64,000 bases of DNA from Vicinamibacterales bacterium (GCA_965243615.1 CBDEVO010000003.1:2690701-2754700), one strand, 5' to 3'. Positions 2,993-54,007 are shown, counted from the first letter of the stretch. Numbers and translations: made by a program. Notes: generated from the letters alone by a model not told the origin.

Positions 2993-3002
2993 TCGGACGA
3001 GA

Positions 3003-14979: not shown

Positions 14980-17900
14980 ATGTATTGCCACGTCAACGTG
15001 AGCACGGGCAGCCGCGGCACGGGCCAGTCGGCGGCGGCGAAGTACGACTACATCAGCCGCGAGGGCAAGTACGAGGCGGCCTGTCAGGACGAGGTGGTGC
15101 ACCTCGAGTCGGGCTGCATGCCGTCGTTCGCGTCGTCGGACGCGCGGCTGTACTGGGCGGCGGCCGACGTGCACGAGCGGAGCAACGGGCGGCTGTTCCG
15201 CTCGCTGACGGCGGCGCTGCCCAACTCGCTGGACTCTGCCGATCGGCTCGAACTGGCGCGGAGCTTCGCGGCGCACGTGACGGGGGGCGAGCTGCCGTAC
15301 ACGCTGGCGGTGCACGCCGGCGACTCGAAGAAGGCGGGGGTGGCGGACAACCCGCACCTGCACCTGGTGTTCTCGGAGCGGGTGAACGACGGGGTGGAGC
15401 GCGGGGCGGAGCAGTGGTTCCGGCGGGCGGCGCCGAAGAAGGGCGATCCGGCGTCGGGGGGCGCGAGGAAGACGGAGCGGACGAAGCCGCGGGCGTGGCT
15501 GGAGGAGACGCGACAGGCGTGGGCGGGGGAGATGAACCTGGCGTTCGAGCGGGCCGGCGTGGACGACCGGGTGACGTCGGAGAGCCACGCCACGCAACTG
15601 GCGCGGGCGCGCGCGGCCGGCGACGCGGCGGAGGAGGTGCGTCTTCTGCTGAACCCGCCGTCGTTGCACATCGGCCCGCCGGCGAAGCACAGCTGGGAGG
15701 ACCGGCCGGGGAGGGCGCAGGAGCTGAAGCCGGATCGGTATGCGGCGGCCGAGGCGGCGGCGGCTTCCGCCGAGGAGGTCCGTTCGGCGCACGCGCCGGA
15801 CGTGGCGGAAGTGGCCGAGGCGAGGTCGCGGGTCGCGGTGCTCGACGCGCGTATCGCGGCGCTGGAGGCGGAGGCGGCGACCGGCGAACGGCGGGCCGGG
15901 CTGGCCGCCCGCGAGGAGTCGGTGCGGGCGACGTCGGCGGGCGGGCAGTGGCTGGACGAGGCGCACCGGTCGGTTCTCGCCCGCGCCGGCGGCCGCCTGA
16001 CGCCGGGCGAGAGGGAACGCGCCGTGGAGACGGTGGAAGGCCGTCTCCGCGCGGACCTCGCCGCCCGCGAGGAGTCGCTCATGGCGACGTCGACCGGTTC
16101 GACGTTGCTGAGGGAGGAGTACGGGGAGGCCGTCGCTTTGGCGGCGGCGGCGCAGAGCTTCGCGAAGCGGGAATCCGTTCTGGAACGGGTCGCGCAACGG
16201 GTCGGCGAGGAGCTGTCGGCTCGCGAGGAAGCGCTCCGGTCGATCCCGCTGGGCCGGCAGCATCTGTCGGCGGCGGAACAAGCTCGGGCCGTCGGGCCAG
16301 CGGGGCCGCCACTGGCCGAGCGCGAGTCGGTGGTCCGAGCGGCGGAGCAGCGGGTGGGGGAAGAGCTCGACCGACGCGAGGAACGGGTCCTCGCGGCCAC
16401 GGGCGACGACCGGCTGCTGGCCGGGGCGGCCGAAGAGCTGACGGAGCGCGGAGCGGTCTCGGGCGACGGCGGCTTCGCGGAGCGGGCGCTGATCATCGAC
16501 CGGGCGGAGGACCTGCTCGAGGCGGAGCGCGCCGAGTTCGGGCTCAAGGAAGCGGATCTGCGGAAGGACGCGGCCGGCGAGGAGTTTCTCCGCGACGCCC
16601 GGGGCGATGTCCTCGGCGCCGCCGACCGGGAGCCGGATACGCTCGCCGACGACCGGGCCGTCATCGACCGGGCGGCCGCGGCGAAGGCCCGCGTCGAGGC
16701 GCTCGGCATCGGGGGCATGGACCTGTACCACGCCCACCTGGCGGACATCGATCCGAAGTGGGGCGTGGACGGGAACGCCGCGACGACGCGCGCGAACCAG
16801 GATGCGGCGCTGAGCGCGGCGGAGTCGGACGTCGCGCGCCTCGGGCGCCTTCGCGCCGTGCTGTCGGACGAGGCCGCCGCCGCCCGCTACCGCGAGGTCC
16901 TCGGCGACAGTCCGGGGCGGTTCGACACGGCGGTCCTCGACAAGGCCCTCGCGGCGGGCGAGCGGGAGCGGGAGGAACGCGCGGCGACGGCGTGGGCCGG
17001 GCTGGCCGCCCGCGAGGAGTCGGTGCGGGCGACCTCGGCGGGCGGGCAGTGGCTGGACGAGGCGCACCAGTCGGTCCTTGCCGACGCCAGCGGCCGTCTG
17101 GCGCTGGGCGAGAGGGAACGCGCCGTGGAGACGGTGGAAGGCCGTCTCCGCGTGGACCTCGCCGCCCGCGAGGCGTCGCTCATGGCGACGTCGACCGGCT
17201 CGACGTTGCTGAGGGAGGAGTACGGGGAGGGCGTCGCCGCGGCGGCGGCGCAGAGCTTCGCGGAGCGGGAATCCGTTCTGGACCGGGTCGCGCAACGGGT
17301 CGACGAGGAGCTGGGGGCTCGCGAGGAAGCGCTCCGGTCGATCCCGCCGGGCCGGCGGCATCTGTCGGCGGCGGAGCAGGCTCGGGCCGGCGGTGCTGCG
17401 GCGGCGCCGCCGACCCCGGCCGAGCGCGAGTCGATGGTCCGCGCGGCGGAGCAGCGGGTGAGGGAGGATCTCGACCGGCGCGAGGAACGGGTCCTCGCGG
17501 CCACGGGCGACGACCGGCTGCTGGCCGAGGCGGCCGAAGAGCTGGCGGAGCGCGGCGCGGTCTTCGGCGACGGCGGCATCGAGGAGCAGGCGCTGATCAT
17601 CGACCGGGCGGAGGACCTGCTCGAGGGGGAGCGCGCCGGGCTCGAGCTCGAGGAAGGCAAGCTGTTGAAGGCCGCCGCCGGCGAGGAGCTTCTCCGCAAC
17701 GCCCGGCGCGACGTCCTCGGCGACGACGACCGGGATGCGGAGACGCTCGTCGACGGCTGGGCCGTCATCGACCAGGCGTCCGCGGCGAAGGCCCGCGTCG
17801 AGGCGCTCGGCACCGGGGGCCTGGACCTGTACCACGCCCACCTGGCGGACATCGATCCGAAGTGGGGCGTGGACGGGAACGCCACGACGACGCGCGGGAA

Positions 17901-19659
17901 CCAGGATGCGGCGCTGAGCGCGGCGGAGTCCGACGGCTCGCGCCTCGGGCGTCTTCGCGCCGTGCGGTCGGACGAGGCCGCCGCCGCCCGCTACCGCGAG
18001 GTTCTCGGCGACAGTCCGGACCGGTTCGACACGGCGGACCTCGACAGGGCTCTCGCGGCGGGCGAGCGGGAGCGGGAGGAACGCGCGGCGGCGGCGCGCC
18101 GTGCGGCGGACCTCGAGACGGCCACGGAGAAGGCCCGGGCCGCGGCGGCGCGGTCGAAGGTCGACTTGCGCCCCGCCGCTGTCCGTGCGGTCTACGAAAC
18201 CGGCGAGACGCACGCGGCCGGTCTCGCGGCCGTGGAGCGCACGACCGAGGCCCTCGACGCTGCGGCCGACCAGGGTCTCCCGACCGGCACGGTCATGGAC
18301 GCCTGGACCGCGAACCGTTCGGCACCCGGCGGGATAGCGGCGGCCCTTGCCGCCGCCACCGCCGCCGCCCGCCTCGAGGAGGAGCGCGCCGAGGCGCGGC
18401 GCAAGCAGGCGGCCATCGAGAAGCGCAACTCTCGCGTGAAGCAGCTGTTGGCCGACCCCGCGTCGGCCGACGCACTCATTGAGGCCCTCGAAGCGGAGGA
18501 CCCGTCGTGGCGGTCAGGGACCCGCCCGGCCTGCATCGACCGGGCGCTCGACGTCGCCGAGCGGGACGCCGGCCGCCGGGAGGTCGCCACTCGGCGACAC
18601 CGGGAACACGAGGTGGTCCTGGAGGCGGAACAGCGCTTCCCCGACGCCACCAGCACGGCGTGCCAATTCGCGGGTGGCCGTTTCGACGGGACCACGGAGG
18701 TCGGCCGTGCGGGCCGGCGCGTCTCGCAGGATCTCTCGGACCGCGCCCTCGTGAGAGCGCACGCGGCCGAGAAGGCCGAGGCGCCGGCGCCTCGCAACTT
18801 CGTTCAGCGGCTCTACGACTGGCTGCGGGATCGGCTCGAGCGGCTGTTCGGCCGTTCGCCCGGCCCGCCCGCGGAGGCCGCCACCCTCGGGCCGGAGGCC
18901 TCCGCGGAGCGCTCGGCCGAAGCGGGCCGGCCTCGACCCGCCGCCTTCGAGGAGCGGTACTGCCGGGAGTGGCCCGAGCACGCGGCCGACATCGACTGTC
19001 CGGACTTCGAGAAGCTGGCCGCGGGCGCGTCAGGCGCCAACCGGCTCTTCGAGCGGGAGGAGCCCCGCTCGTCAAGATGGATCACGGTCGAACCGGGCGA
19101 GTTGCCGGCCGCTCTCGCCAAGCCCGCGCCGGCTTGGAGCGACAAGGCCGTCGAGGAGGTGACCCGGCGGGCTACAGTCTGGGACCCGGACCGGACCGAG
19201 GGCCGGCGGGTCGCCGAGGCGCACCTGGGCGGCTACGAGAGCCGGTTGCCGGCGGAGTACTCGCACTCGGCGGAATGGCAGGCGATCCTGAAGCGTGCGG
19301 AGGAGGCCGTCCGGAAGGCCCAGAACAGCTGGCGGTACAAGTGGGCCGACCGCCGAAAGGACGACCGGAAGAAGCGGGAGCTCGAGGCGACCGCTATCAA
19401 CCGCGCCTGCGGCCGCGATGCGCGCCGCCTGCACGGGAAGATGATGGCGGGGCGTGAGGCCGCGCGGCCCGGCTGGGAGGTCACGGTCAGGATCCGGGCC
19501 GTTCAGGAGCTCATCCGGGACGAAGAGGCGACCCGTTTCAGACAAGAGCGGGAGCAGGCGCGGGAACGGGAACAGGCGCAAGAGCGGGAGCGCCCCGCCG
19601 ACAGGCCGCCGCCCGAGCAGAAGCGGCCGAGAGGCCGGGGACATGTTCTAGATCGATGA
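14980..19659 (+). CDS. mobA: MobA/MobL-family (MOBQ) relaxase, 1559 aa, with repeat-rich Ala/Glu/Arg C-terminal region
   Basis: N-terminal relaxase motifs: AAAKYDYISREGKY (catalytic Tyr region) and LAVHAGDSKKAGVADNPHLHLVFSER (HxDx..NPHxH). No primase or helicase motifs recognised downstream. Confidence 0.9.
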   Translation: MYCHVNVSTGSRGTGQSAAAKYDYISREGKYEAACQDEVVHLESGCMPSFASSDARLYWAAADVHERSNGRLFRSLTAALPNSLDSADRLELARSFAAHVTGGELPYTLAVHAGDSKKAGVADNPHLHLVFSERVNDGVERGAEQWFRRAAPKKGDPASGGARKTERTKPRAWLEETRQAWAGEMNLAFERAGVDDRVTSESHATQLARARAAGDAAEEVRLLLNPPSLHIGPPAKHSWEDRPGRAQELKPDRYAAAEAAAASAEEVRSAHAPDVAEVAEARSRVAVLDARIAALEAEAATGERRAGLAAREESVRATSAGGQWLDEAHRSVLARAGGRLTPGERERAVETVEGRLRADLAAREESLMATSTGSTLLREEYGEAVALAAAAQSFAKRESVLERVAQRVGEELSAREEALRSIPLGRQHLSAAEQARAVGPAGPPLAERESVVRAAEQRVGEELDRREERVLAATGDDRLLAGAAEELTERGAVSGDGGFAERALIIDRAEDLLEAERAEFGLKEADLRKDAAGEEFLRDARGDVLGAADREPDTLADDRAVIDRAAAAKARVEALGIGGMDLYHAHLADIDPKWGVDGNAATTRANQDAALSAAESDVARLGRLRAVLSDEAAAARYREVLGDSPGRFDTAVLDKALAAGEREREERAATAWAGLAAREESVRATSAGGQWLDEAHQSVLADASGRLALGERERAVETVEGRLRVDLAAREASLMATSTGSTLLREEYGEGVAAAAAQSFAERESVLDRVAQRVDEELGAREEALRSIPPGRRHLSAAEQARAGGAAAAPPTPAERESMVRAAEQRVREDLDRREERVLAATGDDRLLAEAAEELAERGAVFGDGGIEEQALIIDRAEDLLEGERAGLELEEGKLLKAAAGEELLRNARRDVLGDDDRDAETLVDGWAVIDQASAAKARVEALGTGGLDLYHAHLADIDPKWGVDGNATTTRGNQDAALSAAESDGSRLGRLRAVRSDEAAAARYREVLGDSPDRFDTADLDRALAAGEREREERAAAARRAADLETATEKARAAAARSKVDLRPAAVRAVYETGETHAAGLAAVERTTEALDAAADQGLPTGTVMDAWTANRSAPGGIAAALAAATAAARLEEERAEARRKQAAIEKRNSRVKQLLADPASADALIEALEAEDPSWRSGTRPACIDRALDVAERDAGRREVATRRHREHEVVLEAEQRFPDATSTACQFAGGRFDGTTEVGRAGRRVSQDLSDRALVRAHAAEKAEAPAPRNFVQRLYDWLRDRLERLFGRSPGPPAEAATLGPEASAERSAEAGRPRPAAFEERYCREWPEHAADIDCPDFEKLAAGASGANRLFEREEPRSSRWITVEPGELPAALAKPAPAWSDKAVEEVTRRATVWDPDRTEGRRVAEAHLGGYESRLPAEYSHSAEWQAILKRAEEAVRKAQNSWRYKWADRRKDDRKKRELEATAINRACGRDARRLHGKMMAGREAARPGWEVTVRIRAVQELIRDEEATRFRQEREQAREREQAQERERPADRPPPEQKRPRGRGHVLDR
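15898..18093 (+). repeat. In-frame tandem duplication, 2 x ~1.1 kb (367 codons) inside the relaxase gene
   Basis: Unit 1 starts at 15898 and unit 2 at 16999 (period 1101 nt). Both begin GLAAREESVRATSAGGQWLDEAH and end ..AAGEREREERAA. The copies are diverged, with a few indels. Confidence 0.9.
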
Positions 19660-22241: not shown

Positions 22242-22769
22242 TCAGTTCGGAAAACCCCGCGTCAGAAGTCCATCGAGCGCCAGCTTGAACCACGCAGTGT
22301 ATCCCGTCGGACGCTCCGCGAACTCCCTTTGAATCGTGGGCACGGTCGCCCACTTCCATTCCTCCACTTCTTGGTCGTCCGGTGCCGGAACACCACAGAA
22401 CCGCCCAATCAGCACGTGATCGAACTCATGCTCCACGAGTCCGCCGTCCGTTGCTGCCCGGTACACGAAGCCGAACACGACCCGCAGCGGGCAGTTGAAC
22501 CCCATTTCCTCCTTCAACCGGCGCTCAGCAGCCCCAATCAGGGACTCTCCCGCCCTCGGATGGCCGCAACAGGTGTTGGACCAGAGACCGCCCGAGTGGT
22601 ACTTGCCGGCCGCGCGCTTCTGCAACAGCAGGCGGTCGGTTTCGTCGAAGACGAAGATCGAGAACGCCCGGTGCAGGATTCCGTTCCGGTGAGCCGCCAT
22701 CTTCTCCACGACTCCCGTTTGCCGGTCGTCGCCGTCGACGGCAATCAGGAGCGTATCGGAATCCTGCAT
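22242..22769 (-). CDS. idi: Isopentenyl-diphosphate delta-isomerase, type 1 (Nudix)
   Basis: HRAFSIFVFDETDRLLLQKRAAGKYHSGGLWSNTCCGHP..AAERRLKEEMG..LVEHEFDHV. The catalytic Cys and Glu contexts are present. Confidence 0.9.
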   Translation of the reverse strand: MQDSDTLLIAVDGDDRQTGVVEKMAAHRNGILHRAFSIFVFDETDRLLLQKRAAGKYHSGGLWSNTCCGHPRAGESLIGAAERRLKEEMGFNCPLRVVFGFVYRAATDGGLVEHEFDHVLIGRFCGVPAPDDQEVEEWKWATVPTIQREFAERPTGYTAWFKLALDGLLTRGFPN

Positions 22770-22848
22770 GGGTGTTCACCTCTTAACCGCGGCATCGACG
22801 GAATCGTCGACTGGATGTTTGCCGCCGGGAAGTCGTCGGCCCGCCGGG

Positions 22849-24117
22849 TCACCATTCTCGCGAATCTTCCTCGAACACCGAGGTCGGCAGGCTGTAGGAA
22901 TGCTCGTACTCGCCGAGATTCGAGACTTCGAGCATGCTCCTGAACCGCGACCTCGACCGATACGCGGCCAGCGGCGGCGCGAGCCTCCGCAGCATCCTGT
23001 CGCCGAAATTGCGCAGCCGCAGCAGCGGAAGCTCCTTCTTCAGTCTTCCGGCGGGGAACCTCAGCTCGTCGGCCAGCCCGTCCCCGATCATTTCCCGCGA
23101 CACCTGGTACATGTACTTCGCCATGGCGCGCCGCGCCTTGGGTTCGGTGAACCCCAGAACGATCGGCGCGCTGTTGACGATGCTGTTCGCCATGATGATC
23201 GCGTCCTCGTCGGGCCGCGGCTCGCACAGCGCTCCAATCTCGAACCACCTGACCGACGAGGCGTAGTCCCGGAACAGGATCTCGTCGGGTATCCCCATGA
23301 GGCGGCCGGTGTACCGCCAGACGTGCACGTACCCCTCGCGTTCCCGGTCGCTGAAATCTCCGCCGAGGTTCGATACATGCTGCAGCAGCCTCCCCGAGAA
23401 GGCGGCGGCGCCGAGCAGCATGTGCGCCGCGCTGAGGGGGACCCCGTATACCGACCGGTCCCATTCGTCGGAAGTCGAGACCAGCCGCCTCGCCTGCGCG
23501 TGCACGAGCCGGATCCTGAGGCTCAGCTTCCACCCGTCGCCGCCCGGCTCGATGCCTCCGGGCAGGTACTGTTCCAGGAGCTGCAGCAGGTTCTGCTTGA
23601 GCCGCCGCACGCCGTTCGTCATGATGCGGCTGCGAATGCGGAACGACTTGCTGATGAGCGTGGAGAAGCCCTCGATGATGGCGCCGCCCACCAGGGCGCC
23701 CATCACCATCTCGGAGTTGCGAAGGAAGGCCCGGGTCGCGTCGCGGGCGAGATCGCGGTCGAACCAGTCGGGCACGACGCCCGAGTCAGCAATCAGGTCA
23801 CGCAGCGACTTGGGCGTGTCGGCCGGCAGATCGCTGAAGCTGTCGAGCGTCCTCGCGATGATTCCGTGCACGTCCGCCGGCGACGCGTTCGCCGCCAGCT
23901 CGGCGACCACCGCGTCGGCCACCGGGTCCCCCAGGGTCGTGTGGCGGATGTACCTCTCGGCCAGCACGGGGTCGACCTTGCGGGCGGTTTCGTAACCGGC
24001 GACGTAGGCGGTCGGGATGTTCATCATGCCGGAGAAACGCTCGGTGAGGGGGGGTGCGCAACGAGGAGCGGAACCGCCTGCGTCGGGTGAACGCGGCGGC
24101 GCGGTCATCGCCGTCAC
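22849..24117 (-). CDS. MpaB/Lcp-family oxygenase (DUF2236)
   Basis: ..WKLSLRIRLVHAQARRLV..GVPLSAAHMLLGAAAF..YVHVWRYTGRLMGIPDE. A GTG start at 24117 overlaps the upstream P450 stop (GTGA). Alternative ATG starts at 24108 and 24027. Confidence 0.7.
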   Translation of the reverse strand: MTAMTAPPRSPDAGGSAPRCAPPLTERFSGMMNIPTAYVAGYETARKVDPVLAERYIRHTTLGDPVADAVVAELAANASPADVHGIIARTLDSFSDLPADTPKSLRDLIADSGVVPDWFDRDLARDATRAFLRNSEMVMGALVGGAIIEGFSTLISKSFRIRSRIMTNGVRRLKQNLLQLLEQYLPGGIEPGGDGWKLSLRIRLVHAQARRLVSTSDEWDRSVYGVPLSAAHMLLGAAAFSGRLLQHVSNLGGDFSDREREGYVHVWRYTGRLMGIPDEILFRDYASSVRWFEIGALCEPRPDEDAIIMANSIVNSAPIVLGFTEPKARRAMAKYMYQVSREMIGDGLADELRFPAGRLKKELPLLRLRNFGDRMLRRLAPPLAAYRSRSRFRSMLEVSNLGEYEHSYSLPTSVFEEDSREW

Positions 24118-25514
24118 CTCGCGCGCTCCCGGATGGTCACTCGAAAGCCGAGGACGCCTACCCCGATGTTCTCGCGTTTCGGCGGGCGGCTCGACGCCGG
24201 CTCGATCCGCAGGCGCTGGGTCATGGTCGCCAGCGCCAGGACGAACAGCATCGCCGCCAGATCCGCGCCGGCGCAGGTGTGCGGGCCGCTCCCGAAAGGG
24301 ATGTACGCCTGTTCGTGTCGGACCGGTCCGTCACGCCGCGAGTCCTCCAGCCAGCGTTCCGGCCTGAACTCGCCGGCCCGCGTCCAACCGTCGGCGCGGT
24401 GGTGGAGCACACGCATGCCGACGTACACCAGCGTTCCCTTCGGAACCGGATAGCCGCCCAGCACGCAGTCTTCCTCCGCCCGCCTGGCCCGCATGACATA
24501 GGGCGGCGGCTCCAGACGCAACGTCTCCTTGAACACCGCCTGCACGTACTCGAGCCTCTGCAAGTCGCCCGGCTCCACCGGCCGGTCCCCCAGCACGTCC
24601 GAGACCTCTCTCTCCACCCGATCCCGGATGGCCGGATCGCGTGCGACGTGGTGCAGCGCGAAGCACAACGCGGCCGTCGGCGCATCCGTGAACGCGCACA
24701 GGAAGGCGATGATCTCGTCGCGCAGCGCCCGGGGGCTCGGGTACGACCACCCGCACAGACCCCGGCGCGCGGCCCGGACGAGGTGTGAAACCAGATCGCG
24801 GCCCTCGTGGGCGGGGTCGCCGGCGCGTTCGATGGCGCCGTATATCGCCGCGTCCAGCGCCGCGGTATCGGGCGCCCGCCCCATCTTCTTGATGGACTGG
24901 CCGAACGGCAGGAGATCCAGAAGCATCGCGGCTTTCAACAGCCTGCAGATCCGCAACCCCTGATCGCGGTCCGCGTCGCGGCCGAGGACGGCCTCCGCCA
25001 GGGCGTCCCACACGTAGCGCTCCACCTCCGGCCGCAGATCCAGCGCCCGCCCCGGCGCCAGCCTCTCTCGGAGCCTCAGGGCGTGCCGGCCGATGACCTC
25101 CGCGTAGCCGGGAAGGCGGTCCTTCGTGAACGCCGTGGCCATGAGCTCGGCGCGCCGGCGGTGCTCCTCGCCGTCGTGCACGGGCAGGCAGCCGTGCTCC
25201 ATCAGCGGGTTCGGCTCCCGGCCGCCGGGCGCCCAGGGCGGAAAGGACTCCGCCCGCGTGACGAGGACCTCCCGGACGAGGTCGGCGTTGAAGACCGCGC
25301 AACACCTCAGGGAAGGAAGACTGAAGAACACGATGTCTCCATGGTCCCGGTAGAGCCGCTCCATGAACTCCGGAAAGCCGGTGAGCCGCTCGACGTAGTT
25401 GCGCAGCCGCCGGCCCCGCGGTCCCGGGGGACGGGCCGGCTTGTCGTCGGCGGAACGCTGCCCGGCCATGTCCTCCGAGCTGGGAGCCGGCTCTTCTTTG
25501 GCGGAACGCTGCAT
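24114..25514 (-). CDS. Cytochrome P450 (paralog A)
   Basis: Heme loop FGSGPHTCAGADLA, ExxR region ETLRLEPP, N-terminal PPGPRGRR. Confidence 0.9.
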   Translation of the reverse strand: MQRSAKEEPAPSSEDMAGQRSADDKPARPPGPRGRRLRNYVERLTGFPEFMERLYRDHGDIVFFSLPSLRCCAVFNADLVREVLVTRAESFPPWAPGGREPNPLMEHGCLPVHDGEEHRRRAELMATAFTKDRLPGYAEVIGRHALRLRERLAPGRALDLRPEVERYVWDALAEAVLGRDADRDQGLRICRLLKAAMLLDLLPFGQSIKKMGRAPDTAALDAAIYGAIERAGDPAHEGRDLVSHLVRAARRGLCGWSYPSPRALRDEIIAFLCAFTDAPTAALCFALHHVARDPAIRDRVEREVSDVLGDRPVEPGDLQRLEYVQAVFKETLRLEPPPYVMRARRAEEDCVLGGYPVPKGTLVYVGMRVLHHRADGWTRAGEFRPERWLEDSRRDGPVRHEQAYIPFGSGPHTCAGADLAAMLFVLALATMTQRLRIEPASSRPPKRENIGVGVLGFRVTIRERAR

Positions 25515-25533
25515 CGCGATGTCCTTCTTCGAA

Positions 25534-26907
25534 TCAGCTGCCGGGCTCCCGTCGCTCGACGCGCGCCCGTATCGGCCCCTTCACCCCCAGCCCGAGCAGC
25601 TCGGCCCGGAACGGCGTGGGTGATTCGAGGGTCAGACGCATGCCCTGCGCGCAGCCCGCGAGGGTCAGCACGACGAGCACGGTGGCGAACTCCCAGCCGA
25701 GGCAGCTGTGGGGCCCGATGAAGAACGGCGTGCAGGCATGGTCGGGACGGGAACCCCCCGAGCCGTCCATCCAGCGCTCCGGGCGGAACTCCGCCGGCCG
25801 CTCCCAGACCGCGGGGTCCCGGTGCGATTCGCCGAGGCACGGTTGCGCAATCGTGCCCCTGGGAATCCGGTAGCCGCCGACGACGCAGTCCTCCGACGCC
25901 TGCCGCCAGTGCGACGTGCCGGCGTAGGAAGGTGGTCTCAGCCGGAAGCTCTCGCTGGCGACGGCCCGTGCGTACGGAAGGCGGTCGAAGTCGGCCCCGG
26001 CGACCGGGCGGTCACCGAGCACGTCGTCGACCTCCCGCTCCAGCCGCTCGCGAACTTGGGGATTCCGATCGAGCAGCTCGAGGCTCCACACCAGCCCCAT
26101 CATCGGCGAGTCGATGGAGCCGAGCACGATCATGTAGATCTCGTCCCGCAGCTCCCGGTCGCCGGCGGCGAACGGGCAACCGTCCTGCGCGTCGGCGGTG
26201 CGGACGACGTGGGAGACCATGTCCTCGCCGCCGTGCGAAGGGTCGCGGGCCTTCCGCATGGCGGCGTACACGGCGTCGTCCATGCGCTCGATGGCGCGCC
26301 GGGCGCGCCGGTTCGCGGGCAGGGGCAGGCGCTTCAGCGCGCCGGACGCCGGGAGGTAGCTCAGCGCCCAGTCGCGCTTTATCGCCGCGCCGGCATCCCA
26401 CGCCACTTCCGGCGGAACCCGCGGCTCGCGGCCGAGGAGGGCGTCGAGCAGAGCGCCGCACGCGAGGCGGCCGGTCTCGGCCTTGTAGTCGATGGTCTGC
26501 CCCGCCCCCCAGCGCTCCTTCATCTCGTGGATGTTGTCGGCGATGAGGTCGGCGTAGCGGCGCATGCGGCGCTCGACGAACGCGCCCCCGAACACCTCGC
26601 GCACGCGTTGGTGGTGCTCGCCGTGGTCGCGCGGCATGCAGGGCGTCGCGATGACCCCGAAGCCCGCGGGATCGTTGAACGCCGGGAACATGTCGGCCTT
26701 CTCGACGAGGACCTCGCGGATCAGGTCCGCGTCGAACAGGGCGCAGAAGTCCAGGCCCGGAATCCGGTAGTGGACGATCCTTCCGTATTCCTCGTGAAGC
26801 CGCCTCATCATGCCGCGAAAATCGCGCGAGCGCTCGATCAGGTTGCGTATCCGCCGTCCCTTCGGACCGGGAGGCAGTCGCCGATTGCCGTTGTCGGAGC
26901 CCTGCAT
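25534..26907 (-). CDS. Cytochrome P450 (paralog B)
   Basis: Heme loop FFIGPHSCLGWEFA, ESFRLRPP, N-terminal PPGPKGRR. Start at MQGSDNG. The ORF-track entry 25534-29115 is an artefactual 5' extension. Confidence 0.9.
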   Translation of the reverse strand: MQGSDNGNRRLPPGPKGRRIRNLIERSRDFRGMMRRLHEEYGRIVHYRIPGLDFCALFDADLIREVLVEKADMFPAFNDPAGFGVIATPCMPRDHGEHHQRVREVFGGAFVERRMRRYADLIADNIHEMKERWGAGQTIDYKAETGRLACGALLDALLGREPRVPPEVAWDAGAAIKRDWALSYLPASGALKRLPLPANRRARRAIERMDDAVYAAMRKARDPSHGGEDMVSHVVRTADAQDGCPFAAGDRELRDEIYMIVLGSIDSPMMGLVWSLELLDRNPQVRERLEREVDDVLGDRPVAGADFDRLPYARAVASESFRLRPPSYAGTSHWRQASEDCVVGGYRIPRGTIAQPCLGESHRDPAVWERPAEFRPERWMDGSGGSRPDHACTPFFIGPHSCLGWEFATVLVVLTLAGCAQGMRLTLESPTPFRAELLGLGVKGPIRARVERREPGS

Positions 26908-26993
26908 CGATCGCCGTTCCTTTCCTGTTTCCCTTCCCGCACTCCGCGCCCGCCGCCCGCGTCGCAACGCGCCGCGCCCGTCCGCGCGCCGTG

Positions 26994-29900
26994 TCAGCCG
27001 ACCGGCGCCGGCCGTGCCGTTGCAGCCGGCCCGCTCATGGCCGTTCGGGGCATCGTGACGCCGAAGTACACGGTGGCCAGGGCCGGCACGACCAGCATCA
27101 GGATCGCCGTCGCGAACAGCAGCCCGAAGCCGAGCGAGACGCCGAGCGGGCTGAGGAACTGCGCCTGAATGCTCCGCTCGAAGATCAACGGTGCGAAGCC
27201 CAGGAACGTCGTCAACGACGTCAGCATGATGGGGCGGAAGCGCCGCTTCGCGCCGTCGATGACCGCGGTCCTCACGGGCGCCCCGAGCCTGAGCCGCTCG
27301 CAGATGAAGTCGATCATCACGAGAGAGTCGTTGACGACGACGCCGGTGAGTCCGATGACGCCCCACATGGACGTGGCGCTCAGACCGATGCCCATGATGA
27401 GGTGGCCGAGGACGGCCCCCACGATGCCGAACGGTATGGCCGCCATCACGAGCAGCGGCATGGTGTATGAACCGAACGGAATGGCGAGCAGCGCATAGAT
27501 CGCCAGCAGGGCGAGAAGCAGACCGCGGGTCAGCCCCTCGAACGACTCGGCCTGCTGCTGTTGCTGGCCGCCCACCGCATACGTCAGACCCGGATAGGCG
27601 CTCTCGAGCTCGGGCAGCGCCGTGGCCGTCAGCACCGCGGTCGCTTCGCCGCCGGTGATGACGCCGTCGTCGACGTCCGCCGTGACGGTGACGATGCGGC
27701 GGCCGGCCTTGCGCCGGATCGACGACGGCGATTCCCCCAGGCTCACGGTGGCGACCCGGCTCAGGGGCACGTCGGCGCCGCCGGGCGTGCGGATGAGGTA
27801 GTCCTCGACGTCGGCTATCGTGTCGCGGTCCTCGGGCGGCAGCCGCACGTAGACGCGGACATCCTCCCGCCCGCGTTGCACGCGCAGGGCCTCTTCGCCG
27901 AAGAACGCCGCGCGCACCTGGCGGGCCAGCGCGTCGAGCGTCAGTCCGAGGGTCCGCGCCGCGGGCCGCAGCTCGATCTGCAGCTCCTGCACGCCCGACG
28001 CGTGGTCGGAGCGCACGTCGAAGACCCCCTCGATCCCGCGCAGGCTGTCGACGACCGACTCGGCGATCGGACCGAGGCGGTCCGGCTCCGGGTGCGCCAG
28101 CTCGACCTGCACCGGGACGCCGAGGTCGAGCAGGTCGGCGCCGAAGGTCAGGCTGCGCGCGTCGGGAGCTGGGCCCGCCTGCCGCCGCCAGGCCTGCGCG
28201 AACGTCTCCGCGGCGATGTCCCGGACCTCGGCGGCAGGCAGCCTGAACTCCACGGCGGCGACGTTGGCCCGGGGATTCAGGTCGGGCGTCTGCTCGATGG
28301 AGCCTCCCAGGGTTCGCGCCCTCGCGCCGACCGTCAGGTTCACACCGGTCAGCAGATCGGGCGCGCCGTCGGGGCGACCGCGCGACAGGTCGTCGATGGC
28401 CCGTCGCCCGGCCGCTTCCAGCTCGCGCGCCAGCTCGGCCGTTCGGTGCGCGGGAGTGCCTTCCGGCATCACCAGGCTGGCCGTGACGATGTCCGATTCG
28501 ACGTCCTCGATGAAGATGACGGGGACCGTTCCCGATCCGACCAAGCCGATGCACAGGATGACGGCGGCCACGCCGCCCGCGACCACGACGGCCGGCTCGC
28601 CGGTGGCCAGCCGCAACCCCCGGTCGAGCGGCCCTTCGATGAACCACCGCAACCCGCCGTCCACGCGGCCCTGGATCCGCGAGAAGAAGCGCTCGACCGG
28701 GTTGGCCGGCGGCAGCGCCGGGTCCGGCAAGTGGGACAGGTGGTGCGGCAGCACCAAGAGGGATTCGACCAGCGAGACCAGCAGCACCCCGATCAGGATG
28801 ATCGAGAGCGGGCGCATCATGGCGCCGATGGGGCCGGGGACGAGCAGGAGCGGCGCGAAGGCGCCGACGGTGGTGAGGACCGCGAAGACCACCGGGCGCC
28901 CGACCCGTTGAGCGCCCCGAATCGCCGCCGCGAGGGGTGGCGTCCCCCTTCGCCGCTCGGCATGCACGTTCTCGGCGACGACGATGGCGTCGTCGACCAC
29001 GATGCCGACCGCGAGAATGAAGGCGAAGAGGGAGATGGTGTTGATGGAGACGTCGAACGCCAGCGCCACCGCGAGGGCGCCGACGAAGGAGATGCCGATG
29101 CCCGCCGCGACCCACGCCGCCAGGCGGATCTGGAGAAACATGGCCAGCGCCGCGAGGACGAGCAGCAGGCCCAGCGCGCCGTTCTCCCGCAGCAGGTCCA
29201 GGCGGCTCTCGTACACTTCCGCGTCGTTGTTCCAGATCTCGACGGCCACGCCGGCGGGCAGCGACGGGACGACCTGCCGCGCCAGATGGTCTTCGACGGC
29301 GGCCACGACCTCCATGACCTGCTCGCCGGAGGACCGGTACACCTCGACGAACGCCGCCGGCCGTCCGTTGTAGCGGACGATCAGGTCGGTGTCGGCGAAG
29401 CCGTCGCGCACCGTCGCCACGTCGCCGAGGCGGACGGCGGTCCCGTCGGCCCTGCTCAGGACGACGATCTCCTCGAAGTCGTGCTGGTGGTAGCGCCGGC
29501 CGGTGGTGCGGACGCGCACCTGCGCGTCGCGCGTCTCCAGGCGGCCGGCCGACAGGTCGAGCGAGCCCGCGCGGACCGCGTCGGAGATGTCGGCATGCGT
29601 CAGCCCCAGCGCGCGCAGCCGGTGCAGCGGTACCTCGACGGAGACTTCATAGGCGCGCACCCCGCTCGTCTCCACCTGGGAGACCCCCGGAAGCGCGGCG
29701 AGGCCGTCCTCGATGCGGTACGCCAGCTCCTTGAGCGCGCGTTCCCCGACGTCGCCGTACACCACCAGGCGAAGGACGCTCTGGCGGTTGGTCATCTCGC
29801 GAATCCGCGGGCGTTCGGCCCGGGCCGGCAGCGTCCGAATCCGGCCGACGGCGGCCTCGACCTCGTCGAGGGCGCGGCCCGCACCGGCGCCGGCCGCGAG

Positions 29901-30215
29901 CTCGACGACCACGGAGGCCAGCCCCTCGGCGGCGACGGACGTCACCTCGCCGACGCCCTCCAGCGTCCCGACCTGCTCCTCGATCCGGACGACTATCGAC
30001 TCCTCCACCTCGTTCGGGGTCGCTCCGGGGTACGGCACGGCAATCTCGATGGCGTCGAGAGACACCGTGGGAAACGGCTCCTGCACCAGGCCGGGCAGCG
30101 ACAGCAGCCCCGCCGCCACGATGAAGAACATCAGGAGGTTGGCGGCCACCCCGTTCCGGGCCATCCAGGCGACGGGCCCGCGCGATTCCTGCGCGAAGCG
30201 GTCGTCCGGGCTCAA
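26994..30215 (-). CDS. RND efflux transporter permease (AcrB/HAE-type)
   Basis: 1073 aa. N-terminus: WMARNGVAANLLMFFIVAAGLLSLPGLVQEPFP..IEIAVPYPGATPNEVEESI. 12-TM/two-loop architecture evident. Confidence 0.95.
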   Translation of the reverse strand: MSPDDRFAQESRGPVAWMARNGVAANLLMFFIVAAGLLSLPGLVQEPFPTVSLDAIEIAVPYPGATPNEVEESIVVRIEEQVGTLEGVGEVTSVAAEGLASVVVELAAGAGAGRALDEVEAAVGRIRTLPARAERPRIREMTNRQSVLRLVVYGDVGERALKELAYRIEDGLAALPGVSQVETSGVRAYEVSVEVPLHRLRALGLTHADISDAVRAGSLDLSAGRLETRDAQVRVRTTGRRYHQHDFEEIVVLSRADGTAVRLGDVATVRDGFADTDLIVRYNGRPAAFVEVYRSSGEQVMEVVAAVEDHLARQVVPSLPAGVAVEIWNNDAEVYESRLDLLRENGALGLLLVLAALAMFLQIRLAAWVAAGIGISFVGALAVALAFDVSINTISLFAFILAVGIVVDDAIVVAENVHAERRRGTPPLAAAIRGAQRVGRPVVFAVLTTVGAFAPLLLVPGPIGAMMRPLSIILIGVLLVSLVESLLVLPHHLSHLPDPALPPANPVERFFSRIQGRVDGGLRWFIEGPLDRGLRLATGEPAVVVAGGVAAVILCIGLVGSGTVPVIFIEDVESDIVTASLVMPEGTPAHRTAELARELEAAGRRAIDDLSRGRPDGAPDLLTGVNLTVGARARTLGGSIEQTPDLNPRANVAAVEFRLPAAEVRDIAAETFAQAWRRQAGPAPDARSLTFGADLLDLGVPVQVELAHPEPDRLGPIAESVVDSLRGIEGVFDVRSDHASGVQELQIELRPAARTLGLTLDALARQVRAAFFGEEALRVQRGREDVRVYVRLPPEDRDTIADVEDYLIRTPGGADVPLSRVATVSLGESPSSIRRKAGRRIVTVTADVDDGVITGGEATAVLTATALPELESAYPGLTYAVGGQQQQQAESFEGLTRGLLLALLAIYALLAIPFGSYTMPLLVMAAIPFGIVGAVLGHLIMGIGLSATSMWGVIGLTGVVVNDSLVMIDFICERLRLGAPVRTAVIDGAKRRFRPIMLTSLTTFLGFAPLIFERSIQAQFLSPLGVSLGFGLLFATAILMLVVPALATVYFGVTMPRTAMSGPAATARPAPVG

Positions 30216-31453
30216 CGGTCCGCTCCCGGTCCGGTGCGCACCGCCATGCCCTCGGTGGCCACCTGAAGCCCGCCCACGACGACGGCGTCGCCTTCCCGGA
30301 GGGGGCCGGTCACGAACAGGGCGTCGTCCGCGCGCTGCAGCACGCGCACGGGGACAATCGCCACCCGGCCTCCGCGCACCACCCAGACCTCGTCACCGGG
30401 CCTGAGGGCCGGGCGCCGAACCCGGAAGTAAGTGTCCGGGGCAATCCCCTGAATCTCGACCTCAACGAACATGCCCAGCAGCAGCGGCGGGCCTCCGGAC
30501 GGCACCGGCCCGCCGCCGCCGCTACCAGTCCCGCTGTCGCGCGCGTCCGCCGGGACACCGGCGGTGAACGGCCGCGGCACGCGGACGATCACGTCCAGCG
30601 TCCGCGTCTGTTCGTCGAGGGCCGTCTCCACGCGGTCCGCGTACCCCGGCCAGGCGTAGCGGCCGACACCGTGCTCGGCGACCACGCGAACCGGGATCCG
30701 CCGGTCTGCCTCACCGGCCCGCAGGCTCCACAGGTCTGGCACGAGGGCGGCGTCCGCGTCGGACAGCGGAACCACGACCTCGACCGCGTCGGAGGCGTAC
30801 AGCCGTCCGACGCTCTCGCCGGCGGCCACGACCTGACCGGCGTCGAGGGACTCGATCCGCACCACGCCGTCGAACGGCGCGCGGACCTCGGTCCGGGACA
30901 GCGCCAGCTCGGCGTCCGCCAACTCGGCGTCGTGCCGGCGCAGAACCGCCTGCGCCGCCTCCAGCTGCGGCTGCCAGAGAGCCAGCGGGCCTGCATCCGC
31001 CGCCGGGGCGCCGTCCGCGCGGCGGCGCCGGAAGGCCTCGTACTGCGCACGCGCGATGCGCGCCTCTTCCTGGATGCGAAGAATCTCCACCTGCTGAACC
31101 GCGATGTCGGACCGCACCTGTTCGACACGGTTGCGGTAGCCGGCATCGTCGATGCGGAAGATGGCCTGTCCCTTGCCGATCCGCCCGCCGCTCTGAAAGG
31201 CCGGCTCCACCCAGGTGACCCGGCCCCCGACCTCGGCCGCGATATCGATCTCGGCGTGGGCCCGGACCGTGCCGGCGGCCAGAACGGGAATGGCGCCGTC
31301 GCCGGCAACCACCGGCTCGGTGACCGCGAACGGCGCCCGCGGGGGCGGCTCCCGGCGCTCGGGCGCCGGGCGCGTGGAGATCAGGTAGCCGGCCGCGGCC
31401 AGCGATCCGGCCAGCAGGGTCACGACCATGACGAATCGCGGCAGTCGGCCCAT
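30212..31453 (-). CDS. RND efflux periplasmic adaptor (MFP/HlyD family)
   Basis: N-terminal TM, alpha-hairpin (IAVQQVEILRIQEEARIARAQYEAF..), beta-barrel C-terminus. 4-nt overlap with the RND gene. Confidence 0.9.
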   Translation of the reverse strand: MGRLPRFVMVVTLLAGSLAAAGYLISTRPAPERREPPPRAPFAVTEPVVAGDGAIPVLAAGTVRAHAEIDIAAEVGGRVTWVEPAFQSGGRIGKGQAIFRIDDAGYRNRVEQVRSDIAVQQVEILRIQEEARIARAQYEAFRRRRADGAPAADAGPLALWQPQLEAAQAVLRRHDAELADAELALSRTEVRAPFDGVVRIESLDAGQVVAAGESVGRLYASDAVEVVVPLSDADAALVPDLWSLRAGEADRRIPVRVVAEHGVGRYAWPGYADRVETALDEQTRTLDVIVRVPRPFTAGVPADARDSGTGSGGGGPVPSGGPPLLLGMFVEVEIQGIAPDTYFRVRRPALRPGDEVWVVRGGRVAIVPVRVLQRADDALFVTGPLREGDAVVVGGLQVATEGMAVRTGPGADR

Positions 31454-32992
31454 CTATCCGCTTCGCCCCTCGGTCGGGGTGGAGGCCGGCACGATGCGCG
31501 GCCCCGCCCTCAAGTCCGACGCGACCCAGCCCCCGCCCAGGGCGCGGTGGACCGCAAGCCTGGCCAGCGCCACGTCCCGCTCGCCGCCGGCGAGCGCCGA
31601 CTCCGCGTCGAGGAGAGTGCGCAGTGCGTCCAGGAAATCCGCGTAGCCTCCAACGCCCGATCCGTACCGCTCCGCCCGGAGATCGACTTCGGCCTGCGCC
31701 TCCTCCCGCCGGGATTCGAGCAGGGCGCGGCGCCGGTCCTCGTATCGCATCCCCGCCAGCGCGGTTTCGACCTCGTTGACCGCCGTCACCACGGTGCGTC
31801 CGTAGGCGGCGGCCGCCTCGTTGAAGCGGGCCTCCGCAAGCGTGACGTTGCTCCGAAGCCGGCCGCCGTCGAAGACCGGCAACAGCAGATTCGCGGCCAG
31901 GTTGCTGAACCACTGATGGACGTTGAAGAGTCCGGCGACCTGCGAGTTCTGCAGCCCGAGGGTCCCGGCGAGGGTGAGCGAGGGGCGAAGCTCGGCGCGG
32001 CGGACCTCAATGTCGTAGCCGGCCGCTTCCAGTCGGTGTCCGGCGGCCCTCACGTCCGGGCGCTGGTGCAGGAGATCGGCCGGAATCCCCGCCGGAACGG
32101 CGGTCGCAACCGGCGACGGGGACGGGGAGTCCCCGAGTAGCTCCTCCAGGTCGCGCCGGTAGCCGCCCAGCATCACCACCAGGCGTCCCTCGGCGCCGGA
32201 CAACCGATGCTCCAGTTGCGGAAGCCGCGCCTGCGTGTCGAGCAGATCCTGGCGGACCCTGTAGGTGTCCAGGGAATCCGACAGCCCGCGACGGTAGCGC
32301 GTCTCCGCCACCGCCTCCCGCTCCTGGAGCACATCGACCGTCTCGCGGAGGAGCACGACTTGTCGGCGGTAGCCGACGATCTCGAAGTACGAGGCGATGG
32401 TCTCGGCGACGATGCCGATGCGGGCCGCCCGAAAATCCGATTCCGAGGCCAGATACGCGGCTCCGTCGGCGAGCCGGCTGCTGTCGGCGCGCCCCCAGAA
32501 ATCCAGCTCGTAGGCGAAGTCGGCGCCCAGCGAAAAGGTGGTGAGCCCCAGTCGATCGGGCAACGTGAAATCGTCCGTCGCGACGCCGAGCCCTTCGCCG
32601 AGTCCCAGCTCCTGGAGTTGCGCCCCGATGCCGGCGTTGGTCGGCGAGCTGAAGTCGTCGACGGACGCGCGAGCCCGTATCGTGGGGAGAAACGCGGCGC
32701 GCGCGATGCGGGCCGCTTCCCGCGCCTGCTGCACGCGCGCAACCGCCACCGCCATGTCGTGGTTGGAGGTGAGCACCGACTCGACGATCGTGTCGAGCAT
32801 CGGGTCGGCGAAGGCCCGCCACCATTCGACCGAATCGTACGCTCCCGTCTCCTCGCTGTTGCTGAACTCGGCGGGCAGTTCGTCGGCAATGGCCGTCGGC
32901 GACGACACGATCGGCTCGGGAAGCCGGGTCCCGGGCGCGAGCGAACACGCAGAGAGGACGCAACCCGCAAACAGCAGCGGGGCAGTCGACAT
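31454..32992 (-). CDS. Efflux outer-membrane factor lipoprotein (NodT/TolC family)
   Basis: Start at ATG 32992 gives MSTAPLLFAGCVLSAC (lipobox). Duplicated OEP repeats. Abuts the MFP start. Confidence 0.9.
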   Translation of the reverse strand: MSTAPLLFAGCVLSACSLAPGTRLPEPIVSSPTAIADELPAEFSNSEETGAYDSVEWWRAFADPMLDTIVESVLTSNHDMAVAVARVQQAREAARIARAAFLPTIRARASVDDFSSPTNAGIGAQLQELGLGEGLGVATDDFTLPDRLGLTTFSLGADFAYELDFWGRADSSRLADGAAYLASESDFRAARIGIVAETIASYFEIVGYRRQVVLLRETVDVLQEREAVAETRYRRGLSDSLDTYRVRQDLLDTQARLPQLEHRLSGAEGRLVVMLGGYRRDLEELLGDSPSPSPVATAVPAGIPADLLHQRPDVRAAGHRLEAAGYDIEVRRAELRPSLTLAGTLGLQNSQVAGLFNVHQWFSNLAANLLLPVFDGGRLRSNVTLAEARFNEAAAAYGRTVVTAVNEVETALAGMRYEDRRRALLESRREEAQAEVDLRAERYGSGVGGYADFLDALRTLLDAESALAGGERDVALARLAVHRALGGGWVASDLRAGPRIVPASTPTEGRSG

Positions 32993-52864: not shown

Positions 52865-54007
52865 TTACTCCTTCTCGACGACGTACTCGGCCCAAGCGTC
52901 CATCAGCATGCGACGCTTCGCGAGGAGGTCGCCGCGACGGTACGCCCGCTCGACCGCGGAGCCCACCGCATGGGCCAGCGCCGTTTCGACGACGGCGAAG
53001 TCGTGGGCCGTCTCCTCCGATGCCCAATCGCGGAACGAGGAGCGGAAGCCGTGGATCGTGCCGGCGATGCCCTGCACCGTCCGGGTCAGCCCCATCTGCG
53101 ACAGGGCGCGGCCGGTGCGCTCGGAGGCGAACACGAACCCCCGCTTGTGCAACCCGCTTCGCTCGTCGAGGATCGCCAAAGCCGGGTCGCTCAGCGGCAC
53201 GACGTGCGCCCGCTTGCTCTTCATGCGTTCGGCGGGTAGCGTCCAGGTCCTGCCGCCCAAGTCGATCTCGTCCCACAGCGCCCCCCGAGCCTCAGCCGAC
53301 CGGGTGGCGGTCAGGACCAGAAAGGCGGCGCAGGCACGAGCGGAATCCGCGGCGTGACTGCCGAGAATGTTGCGGTACGCACTCGGAACATCGCGGTAAG
53401 GGACCGCTTCGTGGTGCCGCCTGACGCGCTCCTGGACCGGGAGAGCCGCCTTGATGCCGCCGTTGGCGGCGACGTTCTCGGAGACGTGGCCATGGGCGAG
53501 GCACCAGTCGAAGATGGCGCGTACTCGCTGGAGCGCCTTCCGGCTCTCGGCCGGCTTTGAGGTCCAGACGGGCTTGAGCACGCCGATGATATCCTGGCGG
53601 CTGATGGCGTTCACGCGATGCTGGCCGAGCACCCTGAGGACGTTGCAGCCCCGAAGCGGCTGCATGAACGCTCGGGCGCTGCTCTCGGACCACCGCCCGC
53701 GATTGGCCGCCAACGTCGCCTCGGCGGCGTCGCGGAACAGCGGCTTGACGTTGTGGGGAGCGGTGAAGGGATCACGGCCGTCGAGCCGGGCCGCCCGGCG
53801 GTTGGCCGACGCGATGGCCCGCGCCTCGGCGAGCGTCCGCAGGGGCCATCCCCCGAGGCCGCGGTCGACGCGCTTGCCGTTGACGGTGAGCCGCTGCACG
53901 AACGCCCGCGAGCCGGACGGCTGCACGACGACGAACAGGGTCTTGCAGTCCGAGTCCCCGTGGCGGCCTGCCTGCAACGTCCCGATCCGCCTCTGGGTCA
54001 GCTTCAT
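52865..54007 (-). CDS. int: Tyrosine site-specific integrase (P4-type, DUF4102 N-terminal domain)
   Basis: MKLTQRRIGTLQAG..TLFVVVQPSGSRAFVQRLTVNGKRVDRGLG. Catalytic residues: TATRSAEARGALW (R), HGFRSSFRDW (HxxR), ERAYRRGD (Y). Confidence 0.95.
   Translation of the reverse strand: MKLTQRRIGTLQAGRHGDSDCKTLFVVVQPSGSRAFVQRLTVNGKRVDRGLGGWPLRTLAEARAIASANRRAARLDGRDPFTAPHNVKPLFRDAAEATLAANRGRWSESSARAFMQPLRGCNVLRVLGQHRVNAISRQDIIGVLKPVWTSKPAESRKALQRVRAIFDWCLAHGHVSENVAANGGIKAALPVQERVRRHHEAVPYRDVPSAYRNILGSHAADSARACAAFLVLTATRSAEARGALWDEIDLGGRTWTLPAERMKSKRAHVVPLSDPALAILDERSGLHKRGFVFASERTGRALSQMGLTRTVQGIAGTIHGFRSSFRDWASEETAHDFAVVETALAHAVGSAVERAYRRGDLLAKRRMLMDAWAEYVVEKE

Follow-up and report, generated by a model that had tools for sequence, protein, structure and literature searches.

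An MpaB/Lcp-family oxygenase gene set with linked cytochromes P450 and an RND pump, and its possible role in isoprenoid oxidation and export

In hpn clusters, the squalene synthases HpnC and HpnD are genomically linked to an RND transporter, HpnN, that moves an isoprenoid lipid. Bacterial members of the MpaB/DUF2236 family are, to our knowledge, very numerous, and the reaction is known for only a handful of them. The latex clearing protein Lcp carries out the O2-dependent cleavage of C=C bonds in poly(cis-1,4-isoprene) (PMC5522427), and in mycophenolic acid biosynthesis MpaB' cuts the farnesyl side chain at one of its double bonds (as summarised in PMC12724181). Nro1 of Gordonia cleaves nitrile rubber, and the family is described as one of haem-dependent alkene-cleaving oxygenases (PMC12724181). 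Surveys of sponge symbionts have described widespread, conserved ‘terpene’ gene-cluster families that lack a MIBiG match, FAM_00447 and FAM_01046 being examples (PMC11832590). Here we describe a block of seven genes (positions 22242-32992) in a 64,000-nucleotide stretch of DNA from a Vicinamibacterales bacterium (GCA_965243615.1, CBDEVO010000003.1:2690701-2754700; the whole of this stretch is called ‘the window’ below), which encodes a tripartite RND pump, two cytochromes P450, an MpaB/Lcp-family oxygenase and an isopentenyl-diphosphate isomerase (Idi).

We propose, with moderate confidence, that the block represents a module that would oxidatively cleave and hydroxylate an isoprenoid, probably one derived from squalene or a farnesyl unit, and export the product. 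The substrate, the order of the steps and the biosynthetic direction are what we infer. The block is the cargo of a ∼53.3-kb integrative mobilisable element (window 947-54192), and the same gene set recurs, in varying order, in genomes of several bacterial phyla.

The gene block and its recurrence in 77 loci

The window has a G+C content of ∼70% and for that reason contains many spurious open reading frames (ORFs); the seven minus-strand ORFs of the block show coding-type codon-position bias, lie where a first-pass annotation of the window had placed them, and all pass curated family thresholds. Following the direction of transcription (all on the minus strand), they encode an outer-membrane factor (OMF) of the pump, a NodT-family lipoprotein (31454..32992; TIGR01845 294.8 bits, cut-off 210; PF02321 157.7 bits) with a lipobox, LSAC, in its translation; a periplasmic adaptor or membrane fusion protein (MFP; 30212..31453; TIGR01730 145.3 bits, cut-off 94.9); an HAE1-like RND inner-membrane permease (26994..30215; PF00873 (ACR_tran) 537.8 bits); P450b (25534..26907, 457 aa; PF00067 168.6 bits, haem-Cys motif FFIGPHSCLG); P450a (24114..25514, 466 aa; PF00067 181.8 bits, motif FGSGPHTCAG); the MpaB/Lcp-family haem oxygenase, hereafter MpaB (22849..24027, first called as 22849-24117; 392 aa; PF09995 82 bits, cut-off 23); and a type 1 Idi (22242..22769; NF002995 168.8 bits, cut-off 127; TIGR02150 121 bits, cut-off 105.8). 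The ORF coordinates and family scores confirm the earlier description of seven packed, co-directional genes, and the hidden Markov models that it had named for checking (PF00067, PF09995 and TIGR02150) matched the P450s, MpaB and Idi, respectively.

The spacings reported in that annotation hold at most junctions: the OMF and MFP genes abut, the MFP and RND genes overlap by 4 nt, and gaps of 86 nt (RND to P450b), 19 nt (between the P450s) and 79 nt (MpaB to idi) separate others. The overlap that it gave for P450a and MpaB is literally present in the sequence, as GTGA with a start at 24117, but is probably wrong. All homologues begin at a methionine located 30 codons into the 24117 ORF (120 among the matches listed, and a 23-sequence alignment), which yields the 392-aa protein, and orthologous loci have a gap of ∼70-115 nt at the P450/MpaB junction; on both grounds the real start is probably at 24027, leaving an 86-nt gap and no overlap. 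The upstream GTG at 24117 is possible as a start but is not conserved. With co-directional genes, gaps of at most 86 nt and no terminator-like hairpin found on the coding strand within the block by a promoter and terminator scan, the seven genes may be co-transcribed. The same scan returned no promoter-like sites, and terminator-like sites at chance level, and so does not define transcription units.

The assignment of the oxygenase to MpaB/DUF2236, which had been put forward in the first reading, holds. In addition to its PF09995 score, a profile of the protein matches LcpK30 with an E-value of 4e-16, and its AlphaFold model (pLDDT 81.3, pTM 0.84) is predicted to adopt an all-helical, Lcp-type fold, with Foldseek TM-scores of 0.63-0.68 and a probability of 1.0 against Lcp (5o1l). 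The predicted match to the t-anethole oxygenase 8s1j is weaker (TM-score 0.41-0.51, 11% identity). The proximal haem ligand of Lcp, His198, corresponds to H176 of MpaB, and Lcp R164 to R134; both residues are invariant in 23 homologues, whereas the position of Lcp Lys167 is not conserved. The N-terminus of the protein, MMNIPTAYVAGYE, contains no signal or Tat motif when judged by eye, and MpaB would therefore be expected to work inside the cell; it is apparently cytoplasmic, unlike Lcp. We regard it as a putative haem b, O2-dependent, C=C-cleaving oxygenase. Classification as a rubber oxygenase proper (Lcp sensu stricto) was rejected, because an obvious secretion signal is lacking and Lys167 is not conserved.

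Residues 119-146 of MpaB (window ∼23590-23673) contain the motif EGFSTLISKSFRIRSRI..NGVRRLKQN, which is more strongly conserved than any other in the subfamily. This segment aligns to that of Lcp containing Arg164, Lys167 and Thr168, and is also the least confident internal part of the AlphaFold model (pLDDT ∼50). It is probably a loop whose conformation depends on cofactor or substrate.

A genome collection was scanned with an alignment of MpaB homologues as the query, and 77 distinct loci were recovered that encode MpaB orthologues (57-100% identity). These loci were examined by tblastn with the window proteins and by de novo ORF clustering, and tallied by taxon; a gene was counted as a partner if it lay within 10 kb of MpaB. 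An RND orthologue (52-82% identity) is present in 45 of the 77 loci, P450s of the same family in 42, a squalene-synthase-like (SQS_PSY) protein in 37, an MFP in 34, an OMF (59-74% identity) in 32 and an Idi in seven, while six loci, some of which are truncated contigs, have none of these partners. The association is kept in some nine distinct gene orders or orientations: OMF-MFP-RND-P450-P450-MpaB; MpaB-(Idi)-OMF-MFP-RND-P450; OMF-MFP-RND-P450-MpaB; MpaB> <SQS OMF> MFP>; <MFP <OMF .. MpaB> <SQS <P450 <RND; MpaB> <RND SQS>; MpaB-RND-P450; MpaB with three or four P450s and no pump; and a scrambled arrangement with two MpaB copies (locus L017).

The exact order P450-P450-MpaB-Idi is found only in the window, in an ENA metagenome scaffold that encodes an exact match to the window Idi protein (L001), and in a locus from a Vicinamibacterales (Acidobacteriota) metagenome-assembled genome (MAG) that is 98.6% identical to the window over 21 kb (L002); truncated idi remnants are present in L003-L007. 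The first-pass annotation had singled out this quartet as the neighbourhood whose conservation mattered, and that expectation is borne out for the gene set, which recurs throughout the 77 loci, but not for the quartet order. The conserved unit is thus the set itself and neither the quartet nor a fixed order, with a cross-phylum core that consists of MpaB and RND (together with the squalene-synthase-like protein and P450s) and with Idi restricted to one clade. Chance juxtaposition, which had been considered at the outset, is excluded because the neighbourhood is conserved in some nine gene orders and in several phyla.

The loci are distributed among Acidobacteriota (Vicinamibacterales, Bryobacterales, Thermoanaerobaculia/‘Ca. 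Multivorans’ and Holophagales), Gemmatimonadota (Longimicrobiales, Ca. Palauibacter) and Gammaproteobacteria. The MpaB proteins of Gammaproteobacteria and Palauibacter are 83-85% identical to the Multivorans and Holophagales copies, and one encoded on a Pseudomonadales chromosome is as close to the window protein as are some Vicinamibacterales copies. MpaB identities thus cut across taxonomy, and the set appears to have been laterally exchanged.

Isoprenoid link, proposed function and rival explanations

The protein family encoded directly beside MpaB in many loci is a member of SQS_PSY (PF00494, 105.9 bits). Its best NCBIfam model is that of the eukaryote-type squalene synthase (94.6 bits, cut-off 286.75), its closest solved relatives are eukaryotic squalene synthases (SQS), and both Asp-rich motifs are aligned with theirs. 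Idi is present in seven loci, exclusively in the class Vicinamibacteria and always inside or at the edge of the cluster, at positions that vary (before OMF, between MpaB and OMF, between OMF and MFP, next to SQS, or after MpaB). When aligned to the solved Idi 3hyq, the window protein keeps the metal-binding and catalytic motifs AAH..LH, CGHP and E.E. A scaffold-forming prenyl synthase or cyclase, by which terpenoid clusters are recognised, is missing from the window and is represented in 37 of the 77 loci by the SQS_PSY protein. The earlier statement that no prenyltransferase is present is therefore true of the window but does not extend to its relatives. The isoprenoid link proposed in the same annotation is strengthened by the SQS-like gene and by Idi, and the toxin-export option that it had left beside that link is disfavoured by them.

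Several further neighbours were noted in individual loci. An Amino_oxidase-family flavoprotein, of the family to which HpnE and CrtN belong, is encoded beside SQS in L015 (16461-17840); a flavin adenine dinucleotide (FAD) monooxygenase lies between SQS and RND in L052 (2004-3860); L014 has an aldehyde dehydrogenase gene that diverges from MpaB (8146-9753) as well as one for an SRPBCC lipid-binding protein (15446-16135); and an ecdysteroid-kinase-like kinase is found in L066 (11222-12433). The flavoprotein, the FAD monooxygenase and the aldehyde dehydrogenase would fit isoprenoid or aldehyde chemistry.

The two P450s are E-class proteins that both keep the haem-thiolate loop FxxGxxxCxG and that, as read from their sequences, have no N-terminal membrane anchor ahead of the PPGP hinge. 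They have the N-terminal layout PPGP[K/R]GRR in common, are 39% identical in a pairwise comparison, and are retained as separate orthologues in other Vicinamibacterales loci (L003, L011, L012 and L052). Given that identity and those separate orthologues, the pair is an old duplication; the tandem duplication suggested previously stands as a relationship between paralogues with a shared layout, but a recent event was rejected. The solved structural relatives of both proteins are generic. Their best curated matches are sesquiterpene oxidases, at 103-149 bits against cut-offs of 700-800, so that a match to named terpenoid P450s (albaflavenone monooxygenase, pentalenene oxygenase) is a resemblance and nothing more.

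The RND, adaptor and OMF genes, encoded together and abutting or overlapping, would form a tripartite HAE1-like system. The closest solved relatives of the RND protein are MdtB, MexB and AcrB, and with the curated multidrug subfamilies (RND_permease_1/2, AcrB, MdtB/C) it reaches at most 447 bits where 1250 would be needed for assignment. An HpnN-type transporter was considered and rejected (18 bits with HpnN models, whose cut-offs are 752-1100). The fact that an orthologous group of pumps accompanies MpaB across phyla suggests a dedicated substrate.

In the mechanism that we propose, Idi would adjust the supply of isopentenyl and dimethylallyl diphosphate, and in the fuller clusters the eukaryote-type SQS-like enzyme would make a C30 or related head-to-head chain. 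The apparently cytoplasmic Lcp/MpaB haem b dioxygenase would then cut a trisubstituted C=C bond of that chain with O2 to give carbonyl ends, after which the two P450s would introduce hydroxyl or oxo groups, and the dedicated RND/adaptor/NodT-lipoprotein pump would expel the amphiphilic product across both membranes. Because the synthase is missing from the window set, this version would have to use isoprenoids that the host cell makes itself or takes up. Since SQS and Idi are supply genes, the evidence favours the making and export of an endogenous product over the expulsion of a toxin.

A number of observations weigh against this proposal. The 64-kb window contains no SQS, synthase or prenyltransferase, and the block contains no redox partner for the P450s. 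The number of P450s per locus varies from 0 to 4, which is typical also of detoxification sets. Both the RND protein (447 against 1250) and the SQS-like protein (94.6 against 286.75) fall far under the curated equivalog or subfamily cut-offs. The substrates of characterised members of the MpaB/t-anethole oxygenase (TAO) family include alkenes that are not isoprenoids, among them nitrile rubber (PMC12724181) and t-anethole (8s1j), so that an isoprenoid substrate is not guaranteed. Some of the cross-phylum cases are on short MAG contigs that are possibly mis-binned, although the chromosome-scale loci L014, L015, L056 and L058 are robust, and much of the Gemmatimonadota evidence comes from loci with the same genes on their flanks, which may represent one arrangement passed on by descent.

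The alternative that survives best is the detoxification or catabolism of an exogenous lipophile (host terpenoids, meroterpenoids, sterols or polyunsaturated lipids), in which the compound would be inactivated in the cytoplasm by the P450s and the C=C-cleaving oxygenase, and it or its products would then leave through the RND pump, the genes being spread on mobile elements as an adaptive accessory trait. The SQS-like gene in 37 loci and the Idi of the Vicinamibacteria-class clusters are difficult to accommodate here, as both point to precursor supply and would have no role in detoxification. Carriage of the block by an integrative mobilisable element, the HAE1 multidrug-like architecture of the pump and the absence of a synthase from the window version are all in keeping with such a function, as are the variable P450 copy number and the occurrence, in several genomes, of two or more different cluster versions. 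The aldehyde dehydrogenase beside MpaB in L014 likewise recalls the logic of rubber degradation (PMC9782182); yet the related loci show no consistent linkage to an uptake system, a regulator or genes of beta-oxidation. We consider detoxification to be plausible but less likely.

A role in remodelling of the cell envelope is improbable. Under that explanation the RND protein would carry a membrane lipid made from squalene, and trimmed by oxidation, to the outer membrane in the manner of HpnN, an equivalence that the very low HpnN scores contradict. The minimal trio MpaB-RND-SQS of Gemmatimonadota, which has no adjacent MFP or OMF, would suit it, but in the window and in most versions from Acidobacteriota the pump is complete, with all three parts, and its outer-membrane channel implies export from the cell. 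A lipid A acyltransferase gene does recur nearby in Ca. Multivorans and Holophagales loci; on the other hand, no cyclase is linked, and carriage on a mobile element would be unusual for a core envelope function. Finally, that an ordinary multidrug pump, miscellaneous oxidases and a housekeeping idi were brought together as unrelated genes by the element, which does also carry a group II intron, a DDE transposase and other cargo, is scarcely credible when orthologous RND (52-82% identity), MFP, OMF, P450 and MpaB genes occur together in dozens of loci that differ in gene order and phylum, most of them chromosomal and without an element.

The biosynthesis and export of an oxidised isoprenoid, our preferred reading, can be extended to a more general and, in our view, doubtful idea. 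This would be a cyclase-free terpenoid route in which SQS makes a linear C30 chain, a cut by the haem dioxygenase sets the scaffold, P450s decorate it and the RND pump secretes an ‘apo-squalenoid’ signal or defence compound. Such a route would be common in the microbiomes of hosts, apparently sponges, and would pass from one phylum to another, and elements such as that in the window would spread its tailoring-and-export half between genomes.

The mobile element and neighbouring genes

The element that carries the block is bounded by identical 13-bp direct repeats, TCGCCTGGTACTA, at 934..946 (attL) and 54193..54205 (attR), and interrupts a gene for a pyrroloquinoline quinone (PQQ)-dependent dehydrogenase. 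The 5' half of that gene is located at 3..947 on the plus strand (PF01011 positions 1-283 of 595; residues 56-331 of the L048 protein) and the 3' half at 54192..55049 on the same strand (PF01011 positions 541-595; L048 residues 328-608). The gene is contiguous in L008 and L048, which represent the empty site, and the uninterrupted gene of L048 contains a single copy of the 13-mer with one mismatch. A tyrosine integrase with Phage_int_M, Phage_integrase and Arm-DNA-bind_3 domains is encoded 165 nt from attR (52865..54028, minus strand), and a MobA/MobL-type relaxase of 1559 aa is encoded at 14980..19659 on the plus strand (PF03389, 51.3 bits). The element ORFs that were scanned, which did not include every small ORF, yielded no type IV secretion gene, and for this reason the element appears to be mobilisable rather than self-conjugative. 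The split gene, the repeats, the integrase, the relaxase and the empty site in relatives together establish the mobile nature that the first-pass annotation had proposed for the module. Mobility is nevertheless a property of the window copy and not of the cluster in general, because most other genomes carry the cluster chromosomally in clade-specific synteny.

The element also contains a group II intron (2841-4808, minus strand; RF02003 89.4 bits at 4667-4808, RF00029 41.1 bits at 2841-2994) with a reverse transcriptase/maturase ORF at 3003-4418; copies of the intron with ∼90% identity are present in the Vicinamibacterales MAGs of L008 and L009. Its other genes include a DDE transposase (40592-42502, plus strand), two MacB/FtsX-type permeases of ∼890 aa (10092-12761, minus strand; 48412-51096, plus strand), a sigma factor, a short-chain dehydrogenase/reductase (SDR), a Uma2 protein and an esterase. 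ARAGORN reported an odd tRNA-like gene, with no anticodon determined, at 44894-44984 on the minus strand, where there is no Rfam tRNA at the gathering threshold. Within the 1.3-kb gap upstream of the block lies a plus-strand ORF of 174 aa that has no family match (33001-33525), and a 242-aa protein whose sole domain is a C-terminal helix-turn-helix is encoded divergently from the OMF gene (34273-35001, plus strand). No dedicated regulator was recognised near the block.

Intact PQQ-dehydrogenase genes were found less than 10 kb from MpaB in five loci of different clades (L048, L008, L010, L051 and L053); the gene abuts MpaB in L048 (11187-13010) and is located at 3843-5513 in L008. This proximity could reflect either a functional link, through periplasmic oxidation of alcohols or aldehydes, or a hot spot for integration.

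One MAG, CBDBOU (contigs 1-3; L003-L007), contains the OMF-MFP-RND-P450-P450-MpaB block at least five times, with 99.4-99.9% identity between copies over a length of 10-13 kb. Contigs end at three of these copies, and each copy keeps the first 30-36 codons of idi after MpaB. From reading of its sequence, we take a gene at the edge of the repeat (L003 15401-16882) to encode an IS110-type transposase.

Elsewhere, a Paracoccaceae chromosome carries lone MpaB copies, and a Pseudohongiella chromosome has three MpaB genes in tandem (L056 7522-11182). A paralogue of MpaB (38-39% identity) is paired with a second RND (52% identity) and an MFP at ∼15.4-20.7 kb in the Acidobacteriota loci L024, L025 and L045. 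Clade-specific neighbours, named by reading of their sequences, include a TonB receptor, a peptidase S9, a ceramidase-like protein, HupE, a glutathione S-transferase (GST), LpxL, RecBD and LigA (Pfam was run for GST and LpxL only); they look like local synteny and were rejected as part of the core. Record and sample names (ROBB21, COS, RHO, SB06xx bins, Palauibacter species epithets) suggest that many of the MAGs come from marine sponges.

Comparison with known systems

The searchable literature yielded no account of a cluster that combines MpaB, RND, P450 and SQS genes, and no paper on ‘Candidatus Multivorans’ or on PDB entry 7WZL, the former in agreement with the first-pass statement that the cluster is not a recognised one. 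Three candidate precedents were rejected: a lichen SQS cluster contains no MpaB, the ‘LCP’ of Rv3839-Rv3840 means LytR-CpsA-Psr, and the P422 preprint merely lists DUF2236 among known haem proteins. The components all belong to known families, and it is their combination that matches no known system found. Uncultured bacteria of three or more phyla have the set, and the window shows it on an intact-looking mobile element.

Among alkene-cleaving enzymes, LcpK30 (5o1l/5o1m) resembles the window MpaB in its PF09995 domain, its all-helical fold and the equivalents of His198 and Arg164, which are kept. The two are only 17-18% identical, however; Lcp is extracellular whereas the window protein has no obvious signal peptide, Lys167 is not conserved, and the genomic context of the window type consists of P450s, RND, Idi and SQS rather than rubber-catabolic genes. 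The pairing of Lcp with aldehyde dehydrogenases in rubber catabolism is nevertheless one of the nearest analogies. Fungal MpaB/MpaB' has the same family name and cleaves a farnesyl side-chain double bond within a biosynthetic cluster (PMC12724181), and by analogy MpaB' would be the closest functional parallel for the trimming of a prenyl chain during biosynthesis; it differs in being eukaryotic, ‘ER-bound’ in the Pfam description and active on a farnesylated phthalide, and is likened here by description only. The t-anethole oxygenase 8s1j and Nro1 belong to the same broad class of haem-dependent alkene-cleaving enzymes (PMC12724181) but act on aryl alkenes or nitrile rubber, and we found no linked pump, P450 or SQS reported in the accessible part of that source. 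Against this background, the ties of gene context that connect the MpaB subfamily to a pump, P450s, an SQS-like protein and Idi provide a concrete and testable substrate hypothesis.

The ‘terpene’ cluster families of sponge symbionts are comparable by description only, in that pipelines would call the SQS-containing versions of the cluster ‘terpene’; the accessible part of the surveys gives no gene content that could be matched (PMC11832590). The window version would escape such pipelines because the core synthase is missing. Were the product a secreted oxidised isoprenoid, some of the conserved sponge ‘terpene’ clusters of unknown function would be explained.

With respect to export, AcrAB-TolC, MexAB-OprM and MdtABC share the three-component architecture and include the closest solved relatives of the pump. 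The pump described here differs from them in its subfamily score (447, against the cut-off of 1250) and in accompanying MpaB across phyla. The hpn clusters share with the set the linkage of squalene-synthase-family genes to an RND transporter. The cluster described here differs from them in that its RND is HAE1-like, is accompanied by an adaptor and an outer-membrane channel and scores only 18 bits with HpnN models, in that its SQS-like protein resembles eukaryotic SQS more closely than HpnC/D, and in that it has no cyclase, with oxidative cleavage and P450s in its place. If our reading is true, a cleavage-based, cyclase-free logic would be added to bacterial terpenoid biosynthesis.

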